A stretch of 64,000 bases of DNA from positions 44,578,001 through 44,642,000 of the forward strand of contig NC_090334.1 of the NCBI RefSeq assembly GCF_035084215.1, given 5' to 3'. Shown here piece after piece: positions 25,056 through 64,000 of this stretch. The notes below the pieces were generated by a model. It did no database searches and was not told the origin of the DNA. It saw nothing but the letters and a program-made list of their open reading frames with translations. The stretch is from Heptranchias perlo (taxonomy: Eukaryota). Numbering within the stretch: the stretch's first letter is position 1; every line of letters begins with the position of its first letter. A program made the translations under genes and the position numbers.

Positions 25056-25165
25056 CTTATGTCTTACCACGTCATGCAAAAAATAAACATTAATATAGCT
25101 TTTTATTAACTCATTTTACTTCATTTTATTTACTTAAACCCAAATATTTGTTTTCTTCTTCCCAG

Positions 25166-25339
25166 GTAACATCTGGTGGAGTATCTCCTGCATTAGCTGA
25201 TGGTCAAGCTCGTAACAGCAATATTCTAGATAGCATGACGAAAACTAGTAAGAAATCGACAAGCAACAACAGCCAGTCTGCAAATAAGGAGAAATCATTG
25301 GTCCTAAAACCTCTGATATCAAAACCAAAGACCAAACAG
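25166..25339 (+). CDS. WDHD1: WDHD1 exon
   Basis: cag|GTAACA...AAACAG|gtgcta; VTSGGVSPALADGQARNSNILDSMTKTSKKS...LVLKPLISKPKTKQ. Confidence 0.9.
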
Positions 25340-25409
25340 GTGCTATATTGTTTCAGAATTTGTTTTATTAGAATCAAGACTTACATGTTTTTTAAAAAAA
25401 ATGCAGGAT

Positions 25410-25790
25410 TGGCGGTTCCCCTAGTGGTTCAGTTAAGTGCAGTGCCCAGTGTGGGACTGAGCTGTGCAGGCCAGAAAGTCTCAGGTTGATCCCTGCTCTA
25501 CGCTGAATTGGTTGATCTTGGCCAGAATGGTGGTAAAAGGACTGCTAATACTACTACTGTCCTCTGTGGCCCTGCGTTAGGAGTTTCCCCTCCTCATCAC
25601 TATTGAGTATCTCTATCTGGAAAGTGATGTGCAGACATTTCGTTCGGACACAAGTGGGTCTGGTAATGGTGTCCCTGTAGTTGAATAACATCCTGAAGCT
25701 CGCTGCCTCTGCTCACATGTGAAAAATGGCCACGATAGTTGACATTAGTAAACATCCATGGAACAAATACTGGATTAAAGTTCAAGGGAA
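25410..25790 (+). mobile_element. Old tRNA-headed SINE
   Basis: tagtggttcagttaag...caggttgatccct head; a related minus-strand relic lies at ~56490-56660. Confidence 0.5.
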
Positions 25791-47195: not shown

Positions 47196-47550
47196 ATGGA
47201 TTGCGAGAAGCAGCGAGCGAAAGGGGGCCACGCCGAGGGGCTGAGCGGCGGCGGGGGTTCGGGCAAGCTGCCCCGGTCCGTGCCCGCTGCCGGTGGTGCC
47301 AGTGGCTGGGTGGGTGGGCACTCTGAGCCGCCCGAGCGGCAGGCACAGAGAGCGGCGGACCAGTGGAAGGAGGAGCGGACCCGCAGCGCCGAGGACAACC
47401 AGTTGAATTTGCCGAGTCTGGAAACCGCCTACTCGGTTATCCTGAAGGGGCTCGGGGAGGATCCCGGGCGGCAGGGGCTCCTCAGGACACCGTGGAGAGC
47501 CGCCACAGCCATGCAGTTCTTCACCAAGGGTTACCAGGAGAAGGTTTCAG
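47196..47550 (+). CDS. GCH1: GTP cyclohydrolase 1, coding exon 1
   Basis: MDCEKQ...[60 protein letters not shown]; phase-1 donor CAG|gtagag; exon 2 not found in the window. Confidence 0.95.
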
Positions 47551-48379
47551 GTAGAGTCAACGCGAGGAGGGAGTGGGGAGCTCACCTCCCTTTTACTGCC
47601 TAAAAAAAAAACTCTCCCTTTCCCCTCTCTCTCTGCATCGACTGTGATTAAATAACTTAAAATGTTTTAATGATTTCCTGATCGTCGTACCTTTTAATAT
47701 AAAGATTTTATACATTTTGTGTAAAGGTGGGCAGTGGATCTCGTTTTGAGAGCCTGTGGTTGCTTGGAGGTGCTATCACTGCTTTTGAAGTATGGTACAC
47801 TTGTCACGCTGTAAACCGTACAGGAAACCCCGTTTCATTTGGTCTCTTTCGCTCTCCCATTCACTAAAGTTTGATGCTTTTCCACAGTTTCTGAATATAC
47901 TGCAGTCAGCGGCGCCCTAACAAGGTGGTTCACGTCTGACGGTCATATGAAAGGAGTTTGCGTTCTTTCTCCCCTCCCCTACTTGTACCATCCCCATGCC
48001 CAAAAGGGCAGGGAACCTGCTCGGCCATTTGGACTTTAACCAAACGGTAGATGTCCCAACGTGACTTTTAAGTGTATATAAGTTCGGTGGGGGAGTGCTT
48101 TGTTACAAGTCCCTGTATCCCTAACAGCTTAATTGAAATTACCAGCATACTGTTTGTGGCGAATTCTACCATTCTCTGCGTACCACCCTGATATTGAAAA
48201 TCTACAAAGCTGAACTACCAATAGTTTATACAGGACTTTAAAAACTGTTTATGAATATACCAGTAATTCAGTATTCCTAATAGCACACCTATTGTATTGC
48301 CAAGCTTTTTGAAGTCAATGTTATTAAAGGTATCAATACTAACTCCATCCTCTGCTCAGTTTTGTCTAAACATTTGTAA

Positions 48380-48832
48380 ACAATTTTACAACACCAAGTT
48401 ATAGTCCAGCAATTTTATTTTAAATTCACAAGCTTTCGGAGATTTTCTCCTTCCTCAGGCAAATGTTTCAAGATCTCCTTGAAGCCTACGCATTTATACA
48501 TATTGAACAATAATACATGGTGTTTACAGACTGCCCCTGCAACTGCCCGTTGCCAAGGCAATCACCGTGTTCAGACAGAGAGGTGTTACCTGCAGAACCT
48601 CCGAATACACATTCAACAAAAAAACAAACAGGGAAAAAAAACAGAGAAAAAAAAACACAGAGAGAGGCAGAAACATCCGGAAGGCAGAGAGAGCCAGCAA
48701 ATGACCCATTATATTAAAAACAGATAACATTTGTTCGCTGGTGGGGTAACGTGTAGCGTGACATGAACCCAAGATCCCGGTTGAGGCCGTCCTCATGGGT
48801 GCGGAACTTGGCTATCAATTTCTGCTCGACGA
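48380..48832 (-). mobile_element. 5'-truncated Penelope-like element (GIY-YIG ORF end plus 3' UTR with hammerhead)
   Basis: ~48738-48832 matches the ORF end of the 59742-62107 element; the rest of the UTR differs. Confidence 0.85.
48426..48463 (-). ncRNA. Minimal type I hammerhead ribozyme motif
   Basis: Minus strand TTTGC-CTGAGGA-A-GGAGA-AAA-TCTCC-GAAA-GCTT-GTGAA. Confidence 0.7.
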
Positions 48833-50449: not shown

Positions 50450-53400
50450 CCTGGATGATGAGACAGAGAGGGACTGGGTGACCTCTACACAGACAAGGAC
50501 GACCAGGCAGGTAGTGCAGGAGTCCCCTGAGTGCATCACGCTTTCTAACCAGTGAATACTGGTGAGGGAGAGGTTTCCTCTGTGGAGTGCAGCCAGACCT
50601 AAGTCCACAGCACCATGGATAGCTCAGCTGTACGGTGGGGGAGGAGAAAGGTCAGGAGAGCAATAGTGATAGGGGACTCTATAGTTAGGGGAGCAGACAG
50701 GCGTTTCTGTGGCTGCAGACTTGATTCCAAGATGGTATGTTGTCTCCCTGGTGCCAGGGTCAAGGATGTCACTGAGCAGCTGCAGAACATTCTGGGGGGG
50801 GGGGAGGGTGAACAGCCAGAGGTCATGGTCCGTATTGGTAGCAACGACATAGGGAGAAAGAGGGATGAGGTCTTGCAGGCAGATTTTAAGGAGTTAGAAA
50901 AGAGGTTAAGAAGCAGGACCTCAAAGGTAGTAATCTCCGGATTATTCGCGGTGCCCCGCGCTTCTGAGTATAGAAATAGAAGGATAGAGCAGATGAATGC
51001 GTGGCTGGAGAGATGGTTGCAGGAGGGAGGGCTTTAGATTCATGGAGCACTGGGACCAGCTCTGGGGAAGGTGGGACCTGTATAGGCCGGACGGGTTGCA
51101 CCTCAATGGAGCTGGGACCAATGGAGCGGGGAGGTTCACTAGTGCTGTGGGGGAGGGTTTAAACTAATTTGGAGGGGGATGAACACCAGGATGTAGCAAA
51201 GGAAAGGAGAAACAAGAGGCACAAAGGATCGGGGGAGAAAAATAGCACTAAAGCAAGTAATAGAACAGTATTAGGTGGGATCAGACTAAGAGAGAATACG
51301 AGAAGGTCTAGGATTGGTTTAGAGTGCATGTGTGTAAACGCACGAAGCGTGGTAAACAAGATTGGTGAGCTGCAGGCACAAGTAGCCACGTGGGAATATG
51401 ATGTCGTGGCAATAACGGAGACCTGGCTCAAAAAAGGGCAGGATTGGGTACTAAATATTCCTGGATACAAAGTGTTCAGGAAAGATAGGGAAGGAAAGAA
51501 AGGAGGGGGTTGGTGGCAGTATTGATTAAGGAGAATATTGCAGTACTGGAGAGAGAGGATGTCCTGGAGGGGTCAAGGACAGAATCTGTTTGGTTAGAGT
51601 TAAGAAATAAAAGAGGTGCCATTACACTACTGGGTGTATCCTATAGGCCACCAACTAGTGGGAATGATACAGAGGAGCAAATTTGCAGTGAAATTACAGA
51701 GAGGTGCAAAAGCTGTAGAGTAATGATAACTGGGGACTTCAATTATCCTAATATAGACAGGAATACCAATAATAATATAAGGGGTACAGAGGGGGAGGAA
51801 TTTTTTTAATGTGTCCAGGATAACTTTCTTAACCAGTATGTTTCCGTCCCAATGAGGAAGGAGGCATTGCTGAACTTGGTTCTAGGGAATGAGGTGGGCC
51901 AAGTGGAGCAAGTGTCAGTGGGAGAGCATTTAAGGAGCAGCGATCATAGTATCATAAGGTTTAGAATAGCTATGGAAAAGGACACGGACAACTCTAAAGT
52001 AAAAATACTCAATTGGAGGAGGGCCAATTTTAAGGGGATGAGAACGGATCTGGCCCGGGTAAATTGGAATCAAAGATTGGCAGGCAAAACTGTCATTGAA
52101 TAGTGGGCGGCCTTTAAGGGGGAGATGGTTCGGGTACAGTCTAGGCACATTCCCACAAAGCCGAAAGGTAGGGCAACGAAAGCTTCCTGGATGACAAAAG
52201 AGATTGTGAGTAAGATGAAAGGGAAAAAGGGGCGTATGACAGATGTCAGGTTGATAACACATGTGAGAACCAGGCAGAATATAGAAAGTTCAGAGGGGAA
52301 GTGAAAAAGGAAATAAGAGGGGCAAAGAGGGAATATGAGAATAGATTGGCGGCCAACATAAAAGGGAAACCAAAAGTCTTCTACAGGCATGTAAACAGTA
52401 AACAAGTAGTAAGAGGAAGGGTGGGGCCGATTAGGGATCATAAAGGAGATCTACTCATGGAGGCAGAGGGGATGGCTGAGGTACTAAATGAGTACTTTGC
52501 ATCTGTCTTAACCAAGGAAGAAGATGCTGCCACAGTCTCAGTAAAGGAAGATATAGTTGAGATACTGGATGAGTTAAAAATTGATAAAGAAGATGTACTT
52601 GAAAGACTAGCTGTACTTAAAGTAGATAAGTCGCCCAGCCCGGATGGGGGAAGTAAGGGTGGAAATTGTGGAGGTACTGGCCATAATTTTCTAAACATCC
52701 GTAGATATGGGGGTGGTGCCAGAGGACTGGAGAATTGCAAATGTTACACCCTTGTTCAAGGAAGGGTGTAAGGATAAACCCAGCAACTATAGGCCAATCA
52801 ATTTAACCTCAGTGGTGGGGAGAATTTTAGAACCGATAATCCGGGACAGAATTAACAGTCACTTGGACCAGCGTGGATTGATTAGGGAAAGCCAGCATGG
52901 ATTAGTTAAAGGTAAATCGAGTTTAACTAACCTGATAGAGTTTTCTGATGAGGTAACAGAAAGCGTAGATGAGGGCAATGCAGTTGATGTGGTGTATATA
53001 GACTTTCAAAAGGCATTTGATAAAGTGCCGCACAGGTAGGCTTATCATCAAGATTGCGGCCCATGGAATAAAAGGGGCAGTAGCAACATTGATACAGAAG
53101 TGGCTAACGGACAGGAAACAGAGAGTAGTGGTGAATGGTTGTTTTTCGGACTGGAGGGAGGTGTACAGTGGTGTTCCCCAGGGATCAGTGCTGGGACCAC
53201 TGCTTTACTTGATATATATATTATTGACTTGGACTTGGGTGTACAGGGCACAATTTCCAAATTTGCAGATGACACAAAACTTAGAAGGGTAGTAAACAGT
53301 GAGGAGGATAGTGAGAGACTTGAAGAGGATATAGACAGGCTGGTGGCATGGGCGGACACGTGGCAGATGAAATTTAATGCAGAAAAATGTGAAGAGTAGG

Positions 53401-54152
53401 AAGAACGAGGAGAGGCAATGTAAACTAGAGGGCACAGCTCTAAAAGGGGTACAGGAACAGAGAGATCTGGGGGTAAATGTGCACAAATCATTGAAGGTGG
53501 CAGGGCAGGTTGAGAAAGTGGTTAAAAAAGCATACAGGACCCTGGGCTTTATAAATAGAGGCATAGAGTACAAAAGTATGGAAGTCATGATGAGCCTTTA
53601 TAAAACACTGGTTCGACCACAACCGGAGTATTGTGTCCAGTTCAGGGCACCGCACTTCAGGAAAGATGTGAAGGCCTTAGAGAGGGTGCAGAAGAGATTT
53701 ACTAGAATATTCCAGGGATGAGGGACTTTAGTTACATGGATAGACTGGAGAAGCTGGGGTTGTTCTCCTTGGAACAGAGACGGTTGTGAGGAGAAATCAT
53801 GAAGGGTCTAGACAAAGTAGATAGAGAGAAACTGTTCCCATTGGCGGAAGGGTCAAGGACCAGAGGACATAGATTTAAGGTGATTGGCAAAAGAACCAAA
53901 GGTGACATGAGGAAAGACTTTTTACACAGCGAGTGGTTAGGATCTGGAATGCACTGCTCGATGGAGTGGTGGAGGCAGATTTAATCATGGCCTTCAAAAA
54001 GGAACTGGATAAGTACTTGAAAGGAAAAAATTTGCAGGGCTACAGGGAAAGGGCGGGGGAGTGGGACTAGCCGGCTTGTTCTTGCATAGAGCCAGCGCGG
54101 ACTCGATGGGCCAAATGGCCTCCTTCCGTTCTGTAGCCTTTCTAGAATTCTC
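50450..54152 (+). mobile_element. CR1 LINE, ORF1 through 3' tail, with stops and frameshifts
   Basis: IVIGDSIVRG (SGNH-like), CVNARSVVNK, ITGDFNYPNID, YIDFQKAFDKVPH, KFADDTK. Confidence 0.92.
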
Positions 54153-56671: not shown

Positions 56672-57962
56672 TCACTAGGTTGTGTTCTTTCACTTCAACA
56701 TGACTTGTTTTCAGATTGTGAGGTAAGCACAGAAATTGACATCTATTAAGAAAATATTCAAACATTTTGATGAACTGGAGAGAAAATATAAAGTAGAAGT
56801 TTGTGTGTTTTGGAGTAAGACTGTAGAGCAGTGCAGGAAAATGTGTACCGTTTTGTTTTCACCCAGTTCTACACAATGATGTGTTTGTTTAATATCCTTC
56901 ATTTAGTTTTTCCTCACTTCACAATAGTGTTGATAAGCTACTCTCATTGATTTGTTATATTAGTTTTTTCTGTCACCGGGGTGTACACTGAGATGTTTGC
57001 AGCAATTCAGACAGTTGCCATATCAACACATTGTCTTTTTGTGATGCAGTTCCTGAAAATAACCGGTAAAGTAAAATTTAATCTCAATTTCTTGAAAGGT
57101 GTGGTGTCATCATGTTTGCTGTTTCATACCCACAGATGATTGAAATTCTGCTCGTCAAAAGGATATGTTGCAGAAATTGTGTGTCATGTTATATATTTCC
57201 TAGCAGAGCCTGCAATTGTTTTGTTGGCCATTGCTAAAGATGATGTCCTGTAGTGACAATTGATATATCTTTTCACCATTAGCTGTGAGAAAGCGCCTTT
57301 CATGACCTCAGTTCCTTCTTTTAAATCAAAAAGATAAAATATAGATGATTTATTTTGCCACCTAACCACTAACTGAAAACATTGTAAGAAACTTGTTCCT
57401 TTTAATTCCAACTAATTCACATTTAAAAAGAATCAATCAATCCTACATAATTGCTTCATGTAATACTGTATTGTGATGCTTCTAGCCATACAGAAGCGTT
57501 CTTTCCTGTCTTGACTAAATCTGGAAATAAAAAGCTGGTACCAGTAAAAGTGACCATGAAACTGTTGGATTGTTGTAAAAACCCAAATGTCCTTTAAGGG
57601 AAGGAAACCTGCCGTCCTTACCTGGTCTGGCTTATATGTGACTCTAGTCCCACACCAACATGGTTGACTCTTAACTCCCCCTGAAGTGCTCTAGGAAGCC
57701 ACTTAGTTGTATCAAACCATTACTAGCGGGTTAAGAAGACAGACCACCACCACTTTCTCAGGGCAACTATGGAAGGGCAATAAATGCCAGCCTTGCCAGT
57801 GATGACCACATCCTGAGAATTAATTTTTAAAAAATATACATTTAAAATTGCATAAATAAGAACACGATGAGTTGTGGGATGAGAGTTTCCATTCACTAGG
57901 TTGTGTTCTTTCACTTCAACATGACTTGTTTTCAGATTGTGAGGTAAGCACAGAAATTGACA
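56672..57962 (+). repeat. Exact 70-bp direct repeat (56672-56741 and 57893-57962)
   Basis: tcactaggttgtgttctttcacttcaacatgacttgttttcagattgtgaggtaagcacagaaattgaca occurs twice. Confidence 0.95.
57520..57825 (+). mobile_element. SINE body with a tail shared with the 43026-family LINE
   Basis: Tail caccaccactttctcagggcaactatggaagggcaataaatgccagccttgccag matches 43705-43760. Confidence 0.7.
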
Positions 57963-58699: not shown

Positions 58700-58862
58700 A
58701 GAAAGATAGATAGATTTTTGGACTCGAGGGGAATCAAGGAACCTCGGGATGGGACAGGAAAGTGGAGTTGAGATTAAAGATCAGCCATGATCTGATTGAT
58801 TGGCGGAACAGGCTCGAGGGGCCATATGGCCTATTCCTGTTCCTATTTCTTATGTTCTTATG
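58700..58862 (+). mobile_element. CR1 3' tail
   Basis: ggctcgaggggccatatggcctattcctgttcctatttcttatgttcttatg. Confidence 0.85.
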
Positions 58863-59796
58863 AATTTTTCATTTCCCATTTTCCAAACCAGACGTCCTTG
58901 TGGGAATTTGAGTGAGATTGCTAACTTTGTGTGAATTCTTGTCAGTACCTGTGCAGTAGATGCATAGCTATTAGGAACTAATTTAAGAACGGAGTTGAGA
59001 CTGCCTACACTTTTTCATTTGAGGACTCTTGCACTGACCAAGGAGAATTCCATTCTGTTAGTCTTATCTATATTTGAACACCTGTCTCAAAGCAAAAGTG
59101 AATTGCTAGCCCACTGCAGCACCAGCCTTGTGATCTTCAATCTCAACTCCACTTTCCTGTCCCATCCCCAGATTCCTTGATTCCTCTGGAGCTTCACCCT
59201 AAATTATGCTAATTTGGTTCTTATTTTTAGGAGCTGAATACCCTGTCATAAGAGGTTTGAAGTTCTAACTTAACACAGTGGAAACTAGTAGGAAGGTGCT
59301 TTGGTTCCCCACTCCATTAATGTAGTTACAATTTTGACATGATTTGAATGTGGGGTAGACAGAGTACAAAAATGTCAAAGCAATCTTTTTACATCCTCAC
59401 TGGCAGAGAAATTTTGAGTATTAGATGTCTTCCAGTGATTATAAGGAAGGAAACCTCAGACTTAAATATCCAGATCTATCAATGGTTTTGTTTGCTTTAT
59501 TAGTAATGCATTGTTGCTAGTCTTTGTCAAAAGTATAATCATTTTTGTAGGTTTTAAGCAATCACAAGTAAAGCTTTTCCTAAATGTAGTCTTATTGTAG
59601 CAATCTTGCAAACATTTTCATGTTTTAGCTGTTTGCTATATTGAGACTCGCATTAGGGTAAAATTAATGGTTACAAATGTAATTGTTTCTTTAGCGACAA
59701 ATAAGAATGTTTTTGCTGTTCACATCGAGGCATTGAAAATTCAAATGTAAGGAATCTTACAACACCAGGTTATAGTCCAACAATTTTATTTTAAAA

Positions 59797-59833
59797 TCAC
59801 AAGCTTTCGGAGATTATCCCCTTCATCAGGTGA
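59797..59833 (-). ncRNA. Minimal type I hammerhead ribozyme motif (inverted arm)
   Basis: Minus strand TCAC-CTGATGA-A-GGGGA-TAA-TCTCC-GAAA-GCTT-GTGA. Confidence 0.75.
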
Positions 59834-60884
59834 GTGAGTGAATGAGAGGTTCTCAAATCGCATATCTTATATTAGGCTGGGACACCATCACACCAAGCAA
59901 AAGGTGTCGTTGGTGTTCAGACAGGTTAGCCACGGAAAACAGTAGGTCCCAGTATGCTGAATACACATTGTGTCAAATTACACAGACAGAGAGAAAGAGA
60001 CCCAAAAGGCAGAGAGCGAGAGAGAGAGAGAATATTAAAAACAGATAACTTTTTTTTCCCCTTGCTGGTGGGGTTACGTGTAGCGTGACATGAACCCAAG
60101 ATCCCGGTTGAGGCCGTCCTCATGGGTGCGGAACTTGGCTATCAATTTCTGCTCGACGATTTTGCGTTGTCGTGTGTCTCGAAGGCCGCCTTGGAGAACG
60201 CTTACCCGAAGATCGGTGGCTGAATGTCCTTGACTGCTAAAGTGTTCCCCGACTGGGAGGGAACCCTCCTGTCTGGCGATTGTTGCGCGGTGTCCGTTCA
60301 TCCGTTGTCGCAGTGTCTGCATGGTCTCGCCAATGTACCATGCTCCGGGGCATCCTTTCCTGCAACGTATGAGGTAGACAACATTGGCCGAGTCACAGGA
60401 GTATGAACCATGTACCTGGTGGGTGGTGTCATCTCGTGTGATGTTGGTATCCGTGTCGATGATCTGGCATGTCTTGCAGAGGTTGCCGTGGCAGGGTTGT
60501 GTGGTGTCGTGGACGCTGTTCTCCTGAAAGCTGGGTAATTTGCTGCGAACGATGGTCTGTTTGAGGTTGGGTGGCTGTTTGAAGGCGAGTAGTGGAGGCG
60601 TGGGGATGGCCTTAGCGAGGTGTTCGTCGTCATCGATGACATGTTGAAGGCTGCGGAGAACGTGGCGTAGTTTCTCCGCTCCGGGGAAGTACTGGACGAC
60701 GAAGGGTACTCTGTTGGTTGCGTCCCGTGTTTGTCTTCTGAGGAGGTCTATGCGATTCTTCGCTGTGGCCCGTCGGAACTGTCGATCGACAAGTCGAGCG
60801 TCATATCCCGTTCTTACGAGGGCGTCTTTCAGCGTCTGTAGGTGTCCATCACGTTCCTCCTCGTTTGAGCAGATCCTGTGTATT

Positions 60885-61742
60885 CACCTCAACCATGTCA
60901 AAGAGGCCATCCCCTATGGACAGGCCTTACGAATACACAGGATCTGCTCAGACGAGGAGGAACGCGATGGACACCTACAGACGCTGAAAGACGCCCTCGT
61001 AAGAACGGGATATGACGCTCGACTTGTCGATCGACAGTTCCGACGGGCCACAGCGAAGAATCGCATAGACCTCCTCAGAAGACAAACACGGGACGCAACC
61101 AACAGAGTACCCTTCGTCGTACAGTACTTCCCCAGAGCGGAGAAACTACGCCATGTTCTCCGCAGCCTTCAACATGTCATCGATGACGACGAACACCTCG
61201 CTAAGGCCATCCCCACGCCTCCACTACTCGCCTTCAAACAGCCACCCAACCTCAAACAGACCATCGTTCGCAGCAAATTACCCAGATTTCAGGAGAACAG
61301 CGTCCACGACACCACACAACCCTGCCACGGCAACCTCTGCAAGACATGCCAGATCATCGACACGGATACCACCATCACACGAGAGGACACCACCCACCAG
61401 GTACATGGTTCATACTCCTGTGACTCGGCCAACGTTGTCTACCTCATACGTTGCAGGAAAGGATGCCCCGGAGCATGGTACATTGGCGAGACCATGCAGA
61501 CACTGCGACAACGGATGAACGGACACCGCGCAACAATCGCCAGACAGGAGGGTTCCCTCCCAGTCGGGGAACACTTTAGCAGTCAAGGACATTCAGCCAC
61601 CGATCTTCGGGTAAGCGTTCTCCAAGGCGGCCTTCGAGACACACGACAACGCAAAATCGTCGAGCAGAAATTGATAGCCAAGTTCCGCACCCATGAGGAC
61701 GGCCTCAACCGGGATCTTGGGTTCATGTCACGCTACACGTAA
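60885..61742 (+). CDS. PLE ORF C-terminal part: RT thumb, Cys-rich linker and GIY-YIG endonuclease (5'-truncated, frame open)
   Basis: KEAIPYGQALRIHRICSD; PCHGNLCKTC; SCDSANVVYLIRCRKGCPGAWYIGETMQTLRQRMNGH; EQKLI..GLNRD. Confidence 0.88.
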   Translation, partial: HLNHVKEAIPYGQALRIHRICSDEEERDGHLQTLKDALVRTGYDARLVDRQFRRATAKNRIDLLRRQTRDATNRVPFVVQYFPRAEKLRHVLRSLQHVIDDDEHLAKAIPTPPLLAFKQPPNLKQTIVRSKLPRFQENSVHDTTQPCHGNLCKTCQIIDTDTTITREDTTHQVHGSYSCDSANVVYLIRCRKGCPGAWYIGETMQTLRQRMNGHRATIARQEGSLPVGEHFSSQGHSATDLRVSVLQGGLRDTRQRKIVEQKLIAKFRTHEDGLNRDLGFMSRYT

Positions 61743-61982
61743 CCCCACCAGCAAGGGGAAAAAAAAGTTATCTGTTTTTAATATTCTCTCTCTCTCTCGC
61801 TCTCTGCCTTTTGGGTCTCTTTCTCTCTGTCTGTGTAATTTGACACAATGTGTATTCAGCATACTGGGACCTACTGTTTTCCGTGGCTAACCTGTCTGAA
61901 CACCAATGACACCTTTTGCTTGGTGTGATGGTGTCCCAGCCTAATATAAGATATGCGATTTGAGAACCTCTTATTCATTCAC

Positions 61983-62019
61983 TCACCTGACGAAGGGGAT
62001 AATCTCCGAAAGCTTGTGA
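61983..62019 (+). ncRNA. Minimal type I hammerhead ribozyme motif in the PLE 3' UTR
   Basis: TCAC-CTGACGA-A-GGGGA-TAA-TCTCC-GAAA-GCTT-GTGA: CUGANGA and GAAA core, stems I and II, palindromic AAGCTT stem III. Confidence 0.75.
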
Positions 62020-62719
62020 TTTTCAAATAAAACAGTTGGACTATAACCTGGTGTTGTAAGATTCCTTACATTTGTCCACCCCAGTCCATCACCGGCATCT
62101 CCACATCTTGAAAATTCAAAGTATACAACTGTGGGCAGCACATAATAGAAAGCAGATTCCATGCAACTTTGACCCTTACGTTAGTTTTCTCATTTGTTGT
62201 GTTACCAGGATAGATTTTCTATTCATAGAAAGAAATTGCGATTGAGTTTCAGGTAATTGGAAGCTAAAACTCAATTGCAAATAACTCAAAAATACAGTAC
62301 TAACTAAGCACACCTGAACCATGCAATAACAATACTGTCAGTAAAATATTTTCATACACTGTGATTCCAGTTACAAACCTGTAGAAATAAGAGGACATGG
62401 TGTAGATGTGATGTATGCTCTTTTTGAAATGTAACCGATAAAGCCCACAAATAAAGTGCAGGCGTTTTGTTTGAAGTCTGTTCTTAACAACAAAGAATGA
62501 TGTGCACCTTGAGGTTTCTATGATTACAGCCATAGATCATGGATTGCAGACAGGAAATTAACATCCCACAGCACTGCTTTGATGTTGTAAGCAACAAATC
62601 GTTTTGCTTTAGTTCTTGCAAAATGGAGGGGAGAATAATTATTTCAATATTATTTTGCAGTGACTCTGTTGGTGAAAAGACATTCAAATATTTAAATATG
62701 AATGGGGTGAAAACATTCA

Positions 62720-62797: not shown

Positions 62798-62839
62798 TTT
62801 TTTTATACGTTCATGCAGAAGAGATTTACTGGAATGGTT

Positions 62840-64000
62840 TTTTTTGATTTGTTCACGGGATGTGGGCGTCGCTGGCGAGGCCAGCATTTATTGCCCATCC
62901 CTAATTGCCCTTGAGAAGGTGGTGGTGAGCCGCCTTCTTGAACCGCTGCAGTCCGTGTGGTGAAGGTTCTCCCACAGTGCTGTTAGGAAGGAATTCCAGG
63001 ATTTTGACCCAGCGACAATGAAGGAACGGCGATATATTTCCAAGTCGGGATGGTGTGTGACTTGGAGGGGAACGTGCAGGTGGTGTTGTTCCCATGTACC
63101 TGCTGCTCTTGTCCTTCTAGGCAGTAGAGGTCGCGGGTTTGGGAGGTGCTGTCGAAGAAGCCTTGGCAAGTTGCTGCAGTGCATCCTGTGGATGGTACAC
63201 AATGCAGCCACAGTGCGCCGGTGGTGAAGGGAGTGAATGTTTAGGGTGGTGGATGGGGTGCCAATCAAGCGGGCTGCTTTGTCCTGTATGGTGTCGAGCT
63301 TCTTGAGTGTTACTTGCCACTTATGAGCCCAAGCCTGGATGTTGTCCAGGTCTTGATGCATGCGGGCACGGACTGCTTCATTATCTGAGGGGTTACGAAT
63401 GGAACTGAACACTGTTCAATCATCAGCGAACATCCCCATTTCTCACTTTATGATGGAGTGAAGGTCATTGATGAAGCAGCTGAACATGGTTGGGCGTAAT
63501 ACACTGCCCTGAGGAACTCCTGCAGCAGTGCCCTGGGGCTGAGATGATTGGCCTCCAATAACCACTACCATCTTCCTTTGTGCTAGGTATGACTCCAGCC
63601 ACTGGAGAGTTTTCCCCCTGATTCCCATTGACTTCAATTTTACTAGGGCTCCTTGGTGCCACACTCGGTCAAATGCTGCCTTGATGTCAAGGGCAGTCAC
63701 TCTCACCTCACCTCTGGAATTCAGCTCTTTTGTCCATGTTTGGACCAAGGCTGTAATGAGGTCTGGAGCCGAGTGGTCCTGGCGGAACCCAAACTGAGCA
63801 TCGGTGAGCAGGTTATTGATGAGTAAGTGCCGCTTGATAGCACTGTTGACGACACCTTCCATCACTTTGCTGATTGAGAGTAGACTGATGGGGCGGTAAT
63901 TGGCCGGATTGGATTTGTCCTGCTTTTTGTGGACAGGACATACCTGGGCAATTTTCCACATTGTCGGGTAGATGCCAGTGTTGTAGCTATACTGGAACAG
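62840..64000 (-). mobile_element. LINE RT/3' end (43026 family), runs off the window, with an internal deletion
   Basis: NYRPISLLS..QFGFR..LDIKAAFDRVWH..GVPQGSVL (63443-63961). Confidence 0.92.

Follow-up and report, generated by a model that had tools for sequence, protein, structure and literature searches.

A palindromic Penelope-like element in the first intron of GCH1 in Heptranchias perlo: a probable 5′-truncated insertion primed from both cut ends

Penelope-like elements can insert with an inverted copy and a short tail inside one target site duplication (TSD). The general scheme is given in PMC8557442 and PMC8969392, and an inverted pseudo-long terminal repeat (pLTR) with tail and TSD is known in Pen2a of Adineta vaga (PMC3846280). 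The locus described here is a palindrome of a Penelope-like element in the first intron of a GCH1 gene of Heptranchias perlo. It lies in a stretch of 64,000 nucleotides (contig NC_090334.1, positions 44,578,001 to 44,642,000), called the window, whose own numbering is used throughout. The palindrome is a dead, 5′-truncated Neptune-type insertion in the commonest, head-to-head form of its family. It was probably made in one event in which both ends of a 13-nt staggered cut were primed on one RNA, and it probably has no role for GCH1.

Other described systems bear on separate parts of this locus. The clades of Penelope-like elements are defined by CCHH and linker motifs (PMC8557442). A Poseidon-type protein from Anolis (PAc) nicks and extends both strands in vitro, with two start sites on the RNA, one at either end of the tail (PMC11167929). 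The minimal hammerheads of metazoan Penelope-like elements have a CUGANGA/GAAA core with an unpaired base before stem II, a 4-bp stem I, and a palindromic helix III without a loop (PMC4209133), and the motifs in the window are alike in all of these.

Structure and classification of the insertion

An earlier note, made from the sequence alone, had described two inverted arms of 1,144 nt each (59742–60885 and 60931–62074) with 45 nt between them and 16 substitutions, and this description is confirmed. There are no indels, and the differences comprise six CpG transitions, four other transitions, and six transversions. The 13-nt TSD TTGAAAATTCAAA occurs as exact copies at 59733–59745 and 62108–62120 around the whole unit. 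Its final CAAA forms the first 4 nt of the inverted arm, and the extra tail of 33 nt (62075–62107) is found on the + arm only, both as previously noted. The thumb-linker-GIY-YIG frame, reported as open on the + arm, is open on the − arm as well. Minimal hammerhead cores are indeed present at both ends (61983–62019, +; 59797–59833, −), and the insertion does lie inside the first intron of a GCH1 gene, 12 kb into its 33 kb. The length of the 45-nt spacer stands, but it is not a separate spacer, as its letters are element sequence in sense orientation. The head-to-head joint at the centre has a microhomology of just 1 nt. The insert is CpG-rich with 51% G+C, and its flanks have 35–39%. The features of the insertion are as follows (A and B are two subfamilies of the element).

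59733–59745, +: left TSD, 13 nt; its final CAAA coincides with element sequence where the tail-less arm starts
59742–60885, −: tail-less inverted arm, 1,144 nt with the CAAA overlap included
59797–59833, −: minimal hammerhead with CUGAUGA core, antisense to GCH1
59866–59871, −: left-arm TATA-like box, directed outward to the exon 1 side; putative promoter
60074–60883, −: left-arm open thumb-linker-GIY-YIG frame of 269 aa, which lacks a start codon ahead of YIG
60886–60930, +: the "spacer", which is the 45-nt excess of the tail arm; C60886 is the 1-nt microhomology of the joint
60886–62107, +: tail-bearing sense arm, the 3′ 1,222 nt of an element of ~3.0 kb
60888–61742, +: open thumb-linker-GIY-YIG frame of the tail arm, 284 aa; first Met after YIG
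61919, +: near-private variant common to both arms (mirror position 59897)
61945–61980, +: TATA-like box (61945) and initiator-like TCATTC (61975); putative RNA start near 61977, the end point of short copies
61983–62019, +: minimal hammerhead with CUGACGA core, predicted cut at 62015/62016; sense in GCH1 pre-mRNA
62024–62034, +: patch with three type-A letters in a type-B arm; outer bounds 62004–62076
62075–62107, +: tail, 33 nt, equal to the 33 nt directly before the ATG of the open reading frame (ORF) in a full-length copy
62108–62120, +: right TSD, 13 nt

Rfam gives 0 matches in the window at the gathering score, and the hammerheads were recognised by pattern and fold. The TATA-like box and initiator of each arm point outward (59866–59871, −; 61945–61980, +); from its sequence, the insert could start transcripts on both sides, antisense ones in the direction of GCH1 exon 1 and sense ones into the intron. 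Contigs from two DNA runs of one sample, which may be the assembled sample and hence not independent, extend across both outer junctions. The site 62126 is heterozygous, and contigs with each of its two letters continue into the tail; the insert thus appears to be present on both haplotypes.

The layout resembles that of Adineta Pen2a in its head-to-head inverted 5′-truncated copy (scheme in the legend of Fig. 2 of PMC8557442), in its one-end tail of 30–40 nt, in the single TSD around the unit, and in the TATA and initiator-like motifs of the pLTR (PMC3846280). In contrast to Pen2a, both arms are truncations of 1.1–1.2 kb, there is no direct 5′ pLTR, and the tail lies wholly before the ATG.

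By its motifs, the element is assigned as a Neptune-type Penelope-like element; Nematis has the same linker motif. The window contains the 3′ 1.2 kb of the element twice, with no start codon before YIG in either arm. A near-full-length relative, L101, is 95% identical to the family copies and has an ORF of ~891 codons with one stop, which starts at the ATG directly after the tail. This ORF matches RVT_1 (E 2.1e-10) and, weakly and below the Pfam cut-off, GIY-YIG (E 8.7e-4). It thus places reverse transcriptase (RT) and then the GIY-YIG endonuclease in a single ORF, as in Penelope-like elements with a C-terminal endonuclease. A Pfam search of the two arm frames of the window finds no relevant family and no GIY-YIG match at E 0.1; the arms carry the same GIY-YIG motifs as L101. 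The CCHH motif, in which two Cys stand between GIY and YIG, is seen in VVYLIRCRKGCPGAWYIG and the His residues after it. In the 60888–61742 (+) frame the linker motif is CX4CxxC, and the two Cys lie between VVY and YIG. L101 forms a partial tandem with an inverted pLTR (L101:3776-6970, minus strand), and the 33-nt tail falls within the expected 30–40 nt; the pLTR contains the minimal hammerhead, by pattern and fold. The linker CHGNLCKTC fits the CX2-5CxxC of Neptune and Nematis. Since the Penelope/Poseidon clade lacks this linker motif by definition (PMC8557442), a Poseidon-type assignment is rejected. As in the Neptune clade, RT is followed by a C-terminal GIY-YIG with CCHH and the CX2-5CxxC linker (PMC8557442); unlike in that clade, the targets here are AT-rich unique DNA and not microsatellites.

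The 5′ pLTR of L101 starts just below a TATA-like box. Subfamilies A and B have a common ORF (~94%) and pLTR, and unrelated 3′ untranslated region/promoter segments (L125 and L137 against window 61835–61975). In each of these segments a TATA-like box lies equally far from where the pLTR starts.

Formation of the two arms

The family counts are lower bounds, based on lists of exact matches drawn from the beginning of the largest contigs. At the tail end, one exact 49-mer is matched 2,210 times genome-wide, and the pLTR has 2,777 exact matches of type A and 2,991 of type B. An inverted arm and a TSD pass a strict test at 25 of 40 position-ordered tail ends, which are the first listed on contig C1 and are conditioned on an ATG after the tail. 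Four others have a 12–13-nt TSD with a less clean arm start, one has another structure, and ten have no inverted arm. Both features also occur in 23 of the 40 most similar copies, with the window included. In the 48 passing palindromes the TSD is 11–18 nt long, with a mode of 12 (one mismatch allowed), and the tail-less arm lacks 32–39 nt of the 3′ end in 42. Close pairs are head-to-head in 36 cases and tail-to-tail in one (n = 37). For an exact 34-mer with 564 matches, the first 100 include 26 head-to-head pairs, ten of which span at least 2 kb; scaled, this amounts to ~147 pairs genome-wide by this one 34-mer, ~56 of them spanning at least 2 kb, where span is not equal to duplex length. By these counts the inverted layout is the commonest product of the family here, so that nothing points to GCH1. 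The layout is already published, and the locus is a real and ordinary 5′-truncated insertion.

Compound insertions are also found, in which new family copies lie directly at the ends of earlier ones (L033:7215-8122, L057:4423-7911, L067:5702-7910). Another palindrome of the same family, of 3.4 kb (L053:1-3398), has arms with 99.5% identity, more alike than any measured; it is young, converted, or misassembled.

A single insertion event, as the earlier note had proposed, is supported by the one TSD and the family-typical ends. Its "microhomology-primed inversion" is not supported as stated. The CAAA overlap lies at a start site that is fixed family-wide, as the 42 palindromes show, and therefore reads better as pairing of primer and template at a second priming site. 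The statistics of the family speak for two priming sites on one RNA, 32–39 nt from each other, each used by one of the two DNA nicks. Both arms lie inside a single TSD. The end of the bottom strand would have been primed at the tail end, just before the ATG of the ORF, and the end of the top strand, its CAAA paired with the RNA, would have been primed 33–37 nt upstream to give the tail-less arm. Both cDNAs, of ~1.2 kb on the same template, would then have been joined head to head at the 1-nt microhomology, with their 45-nt length difference as the loop. The ten differences in the body and part of the six in the pLTR would have arisen later, and three linked letters of the tail arm would derive from the sister subfamily through later gene conversion or a template switch. 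In LINE-1 twin priming, both target ends likewise prime and the cDNAs are joined by microhomology inside one TSD; in contrast, the inverted part comes from further upstream and the 3′ end is not repeated. With LINE-1 inversion so understood, a twin-priming inversion of that type is ruled out, as both arms hold the 3′ 1.1 kb.

Among 59 long loci examined, 34 have adjoining arms long enough to measure. The longer arm is the tail-less one in 16 and the tail arm in 18, and the arm lengths show a Spearman rho of −0.01. Fold-back from a tail-less cDNA cannot give a tail, which means that both arms must usually be RNA-primed. The centre overlap is 1–9 nt in 24 of the 34. The two-strand, two-site priming by the PAc protein in vitro fits this (PMC11167929). 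PAc is alike in its two start sites bounding the tail, in that both strands are nicked and extended, and in that its cDNAs pass the hammerhead cut site (PMC11167929). It differs in having its start sites inside the ORF and, by clade definition, no linker motif. In the portion of PMC11167929 used here, the two start sites are not put forward as the origin of the inverted layout, and a literature search, made without subscription papers or supplements, found no paper that derives it from priming at both nicks.

Self-priming is a published suggestion for such elements (PMC3846280). Here, one tail-primed cDNA of 1,222 nt with a 45-nt loop would have copied itself back to the tail-less site. The loop does belong to the tail arm, and C61919, common to both arms, fits as well. 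Arms are within 60 nt in length in 7 of 34 palindromes (the window locus included) against 2.9 expected (p ~0.02), an excess that would also be expected from fold-back copying. Nevertheless, such self-copying is unlikely. The tail-less end is fixed family-wide, the centre microhomology of the window locus is only 1 nt, and among the nine palindromes with arms within 100 nt the tail-less arm is longer in six, which suggests that a shared stop on one RNA explains near-equal arms better. The excess of near-equal arms counts against double priming on one RNA, and so do several other points: an empty site was not seen, the lists are lower bounds from the start of the largest contigs, and the in vitro protein is Poseidon-type and not Neptune-type (PMC11167929). 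An assembly artefact from a mirrored read is scarcely credible; among the contigs listed none spans the whole structure or its centre, but both outer junctions can be followed in the contigs of two DNA runs, the arms differ at 16 sites with several letters found in other family copies, and the TSD and ends match dozens of other loci.

It is also improbable that two RNAs, one per subunit of a dimeric protein, served as templates and that the pLTR differences record two parents. This would account for the 6 of 16 arm differences within ~100 nt of pLTR (binomial p 0.002) and for the three linked type-A letters of the tail arm (62024, 62033, 62034), as type A has 2,777 exact copies, and an AlphaFold dimer is given in PMC11167929. 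However, the arm subfamilies agree in 35 of 36 head-to-head pairs from two exact-match lists, where ~16 mixed pairs are expected, and the sole mixed pair is two separate insertions. Body divergence in 35 long palindromes is 2.6% between arms vs 4.0% between loci, and no general pLTR excess of arm differences is found across them. Private variants are common to both arms in 7 of the 35. At the window locus, C61919 has three exact matches genome-wide, two of which are the window arms, and the common letter has 564; the third carrier, L221, is not otherwise close to the window copy. These sequence comparisons point to one RNA template for both arms, and a general two-RNA model is rejected by the pair concordance and by the arm/locus divergence. 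Different active periods of A and B could still give concordance with two RNAs, and variants common to the arms could come from arm-to-arm conversion; both weigh against the single template.

Stem II and the tail of the tail arm are both of type B, and 17 of 18 type-A tails differ from the window tail, so that the type-A part of this arm is a short patch of 11–73 nt. A sub-lineage carrying the mosaic pLTR is rejected, as the mosaic 44-mer has just three exact matches genome-wide. The bounds on both sides favour gene conversion from the abundant A copies; a rare A variant, with a switch close to the cut site, is the alternative source. At L059, only the tail arm is of type A in its pLTR, all the way from stem II to the end of the tail, as a template jump would leave it. 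The window locus and L059 are the two clear cases of a pLTR subfamily switch in 35.

Short copies contain information on the RNA start. The spacing between patterns in the 36 pairs is 70–116 nt in 19 (mini-palindromes), 188–255 nt in three, and at least 887 nt in 14. In 23 short palindromes, chosen for having <200 nt between their cores, all but one of 46 arm ends (45) are 14–39 nt upstream of the hammerhead GAAAG. The ends were measured by ungapped extension against five copies, so that some are underestimated, and in two cases long extra sequence is included. The stop lies ~30 nt below a TATA-like box that the two subfamilies have in common, at a point where their sequences otherwise diverge. 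We infer that the short copies are run-off at the RNA 5′ end. Their cDNAs pass the predicted cut site 62015/62016, which argues for most insertions against the hammerhead-cut circular template, a proposal of PMC4209133; hammerhead cleavage is not needed in PMC11167929. It is conceivable, though less likely than not, that the family uses a retrovirus-like strong-stop route on chromosome ends. Priming by both nicked strands would take place close to the 5′ end of a single RNA that is left uncut, run-off at the transcription start within 130 nt would give the mini-palindromes (half of the pairs), and long arms would need a jump to the pLTR at the RNA 3′ end. The patch in the window and the type-A tail-arm pLTR of L059 would then be jump scars.

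Hammerheads, RNA folding and the GCH1 locus

The first coding exon of GCH1 (47196–47550, +) matches GTP cyclohydrolase I of the PDB by phmmer (E 6.9e-30). Exon 2 begins ~33 kb past exon 1, outside the window; a scan of the window and the next 10 kb did not contain it, and it was placed by a PF01227 family search.

The earlier note expected GCH1 pre-mRNA to form a long near-perfect duplex, and the predicted fold pairs 2,282 nt arm to arm (−2,432 kcal/mol). The two arms would form a duplex of 1.14 kb as a by-product of the insertion, and the burial of the sense hammerhead, also foreseen, follows from this fold. The monomer fold leaves helix III of the hammerhead without a loop. Single minimal hammerheads are inactive in vitro (PMC4209133), and the PAc hammerhead needed its protein (PMC11167929). 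Opposite-strand pairs are already known in Schistosoma (PMC4209133). No second sense core of the same family is found in intron 1 as far as 10 kb beyond the window; one older sense pLTR lies ~16 kb downstream. Shielding of the hammerhead is probably moot, as such motifs need a dimer.

Co-option as an intronic double-stranded RNA (dsRNA) that regulates GCH1 through editing, small interfering RNA, or splicing, or that shields it from hammerhead cleavage, is very unlikely. The extent of the predicted duplex, which covers the hammerhead, and the apparent presence of the insert on both haplotypes of one sample are in line with it. Against it, the genome has ~147 such pairs by the scaled 34-mer count, the arms are decaying, only one sense hammerhead of the family is near, of a kind inactive singly (PMC4209133), and the same intron has another inverted pair. 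In two runs guessed to be RNA, contigs cover the repeat and not its unique flanks, and their A>G difference at 61502 is present in DNA runs too. The palindrome is likely without a role for GCH1.

Other features of the locus are the following.

47196–47550, +: GCH1 coding exon 1, found by phmmer; intron 1 runs from 47551 and is ~33 kb long
48375–48459 and 48655–48832, −: older related Penelope-like fragment in intron 1, 83–86%, with an antisense hammerhead core
52104–53708 / 70043–71637: another pair, 75% identity
56672–56741 and 57893–57962: perfect direct repeat of 70 nt, 1,221 nt apart
58723–58783 / 59131–59191: inverted repeat of 61 nt, 92%, 347 nt apart
62813–63713 with window-equivalent 68852–70065 (L070): inverted pair of another repeat in the same intron, ~900 nt, 95–97% identity

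High read depth in the bin of the 61-nt inverted repeat suggests a short repeated element. An open frame at 25094–25489 (+) ends at a splice-like site and gives nothing significant in Pfam; its sequence may resemble a C-terminal exon of WDHD1. A second gene of the GTP cyclohydrolase I family is found on contig C8 (73% over 41 aa). Two weak PF01227 matches to the same profile stretch lie 790 nt apart (C10:44662350-44662427 and 44663140-44663217), and GCH1 exon 3 may be duplicated there.

Meaning for Penelope-like elements

The formation of inverted copies by Penelope-like elements is still listed as unexplained in PMC8557442. The locus is an ordinary fossil, and one of thousands of natural records of this process. 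The counts tie the two start sites seen in vitro (PMC11167929) to the inverted layout, argue against fold-back, and suggest that one RNA served as template. They also place the point where short copies run off at the likely transcription start, upstream of the hammerhead cut site. The introns of such a genome also contain hundreds of long potential dsRNAs, which would be a load on editing and RNA silencing.

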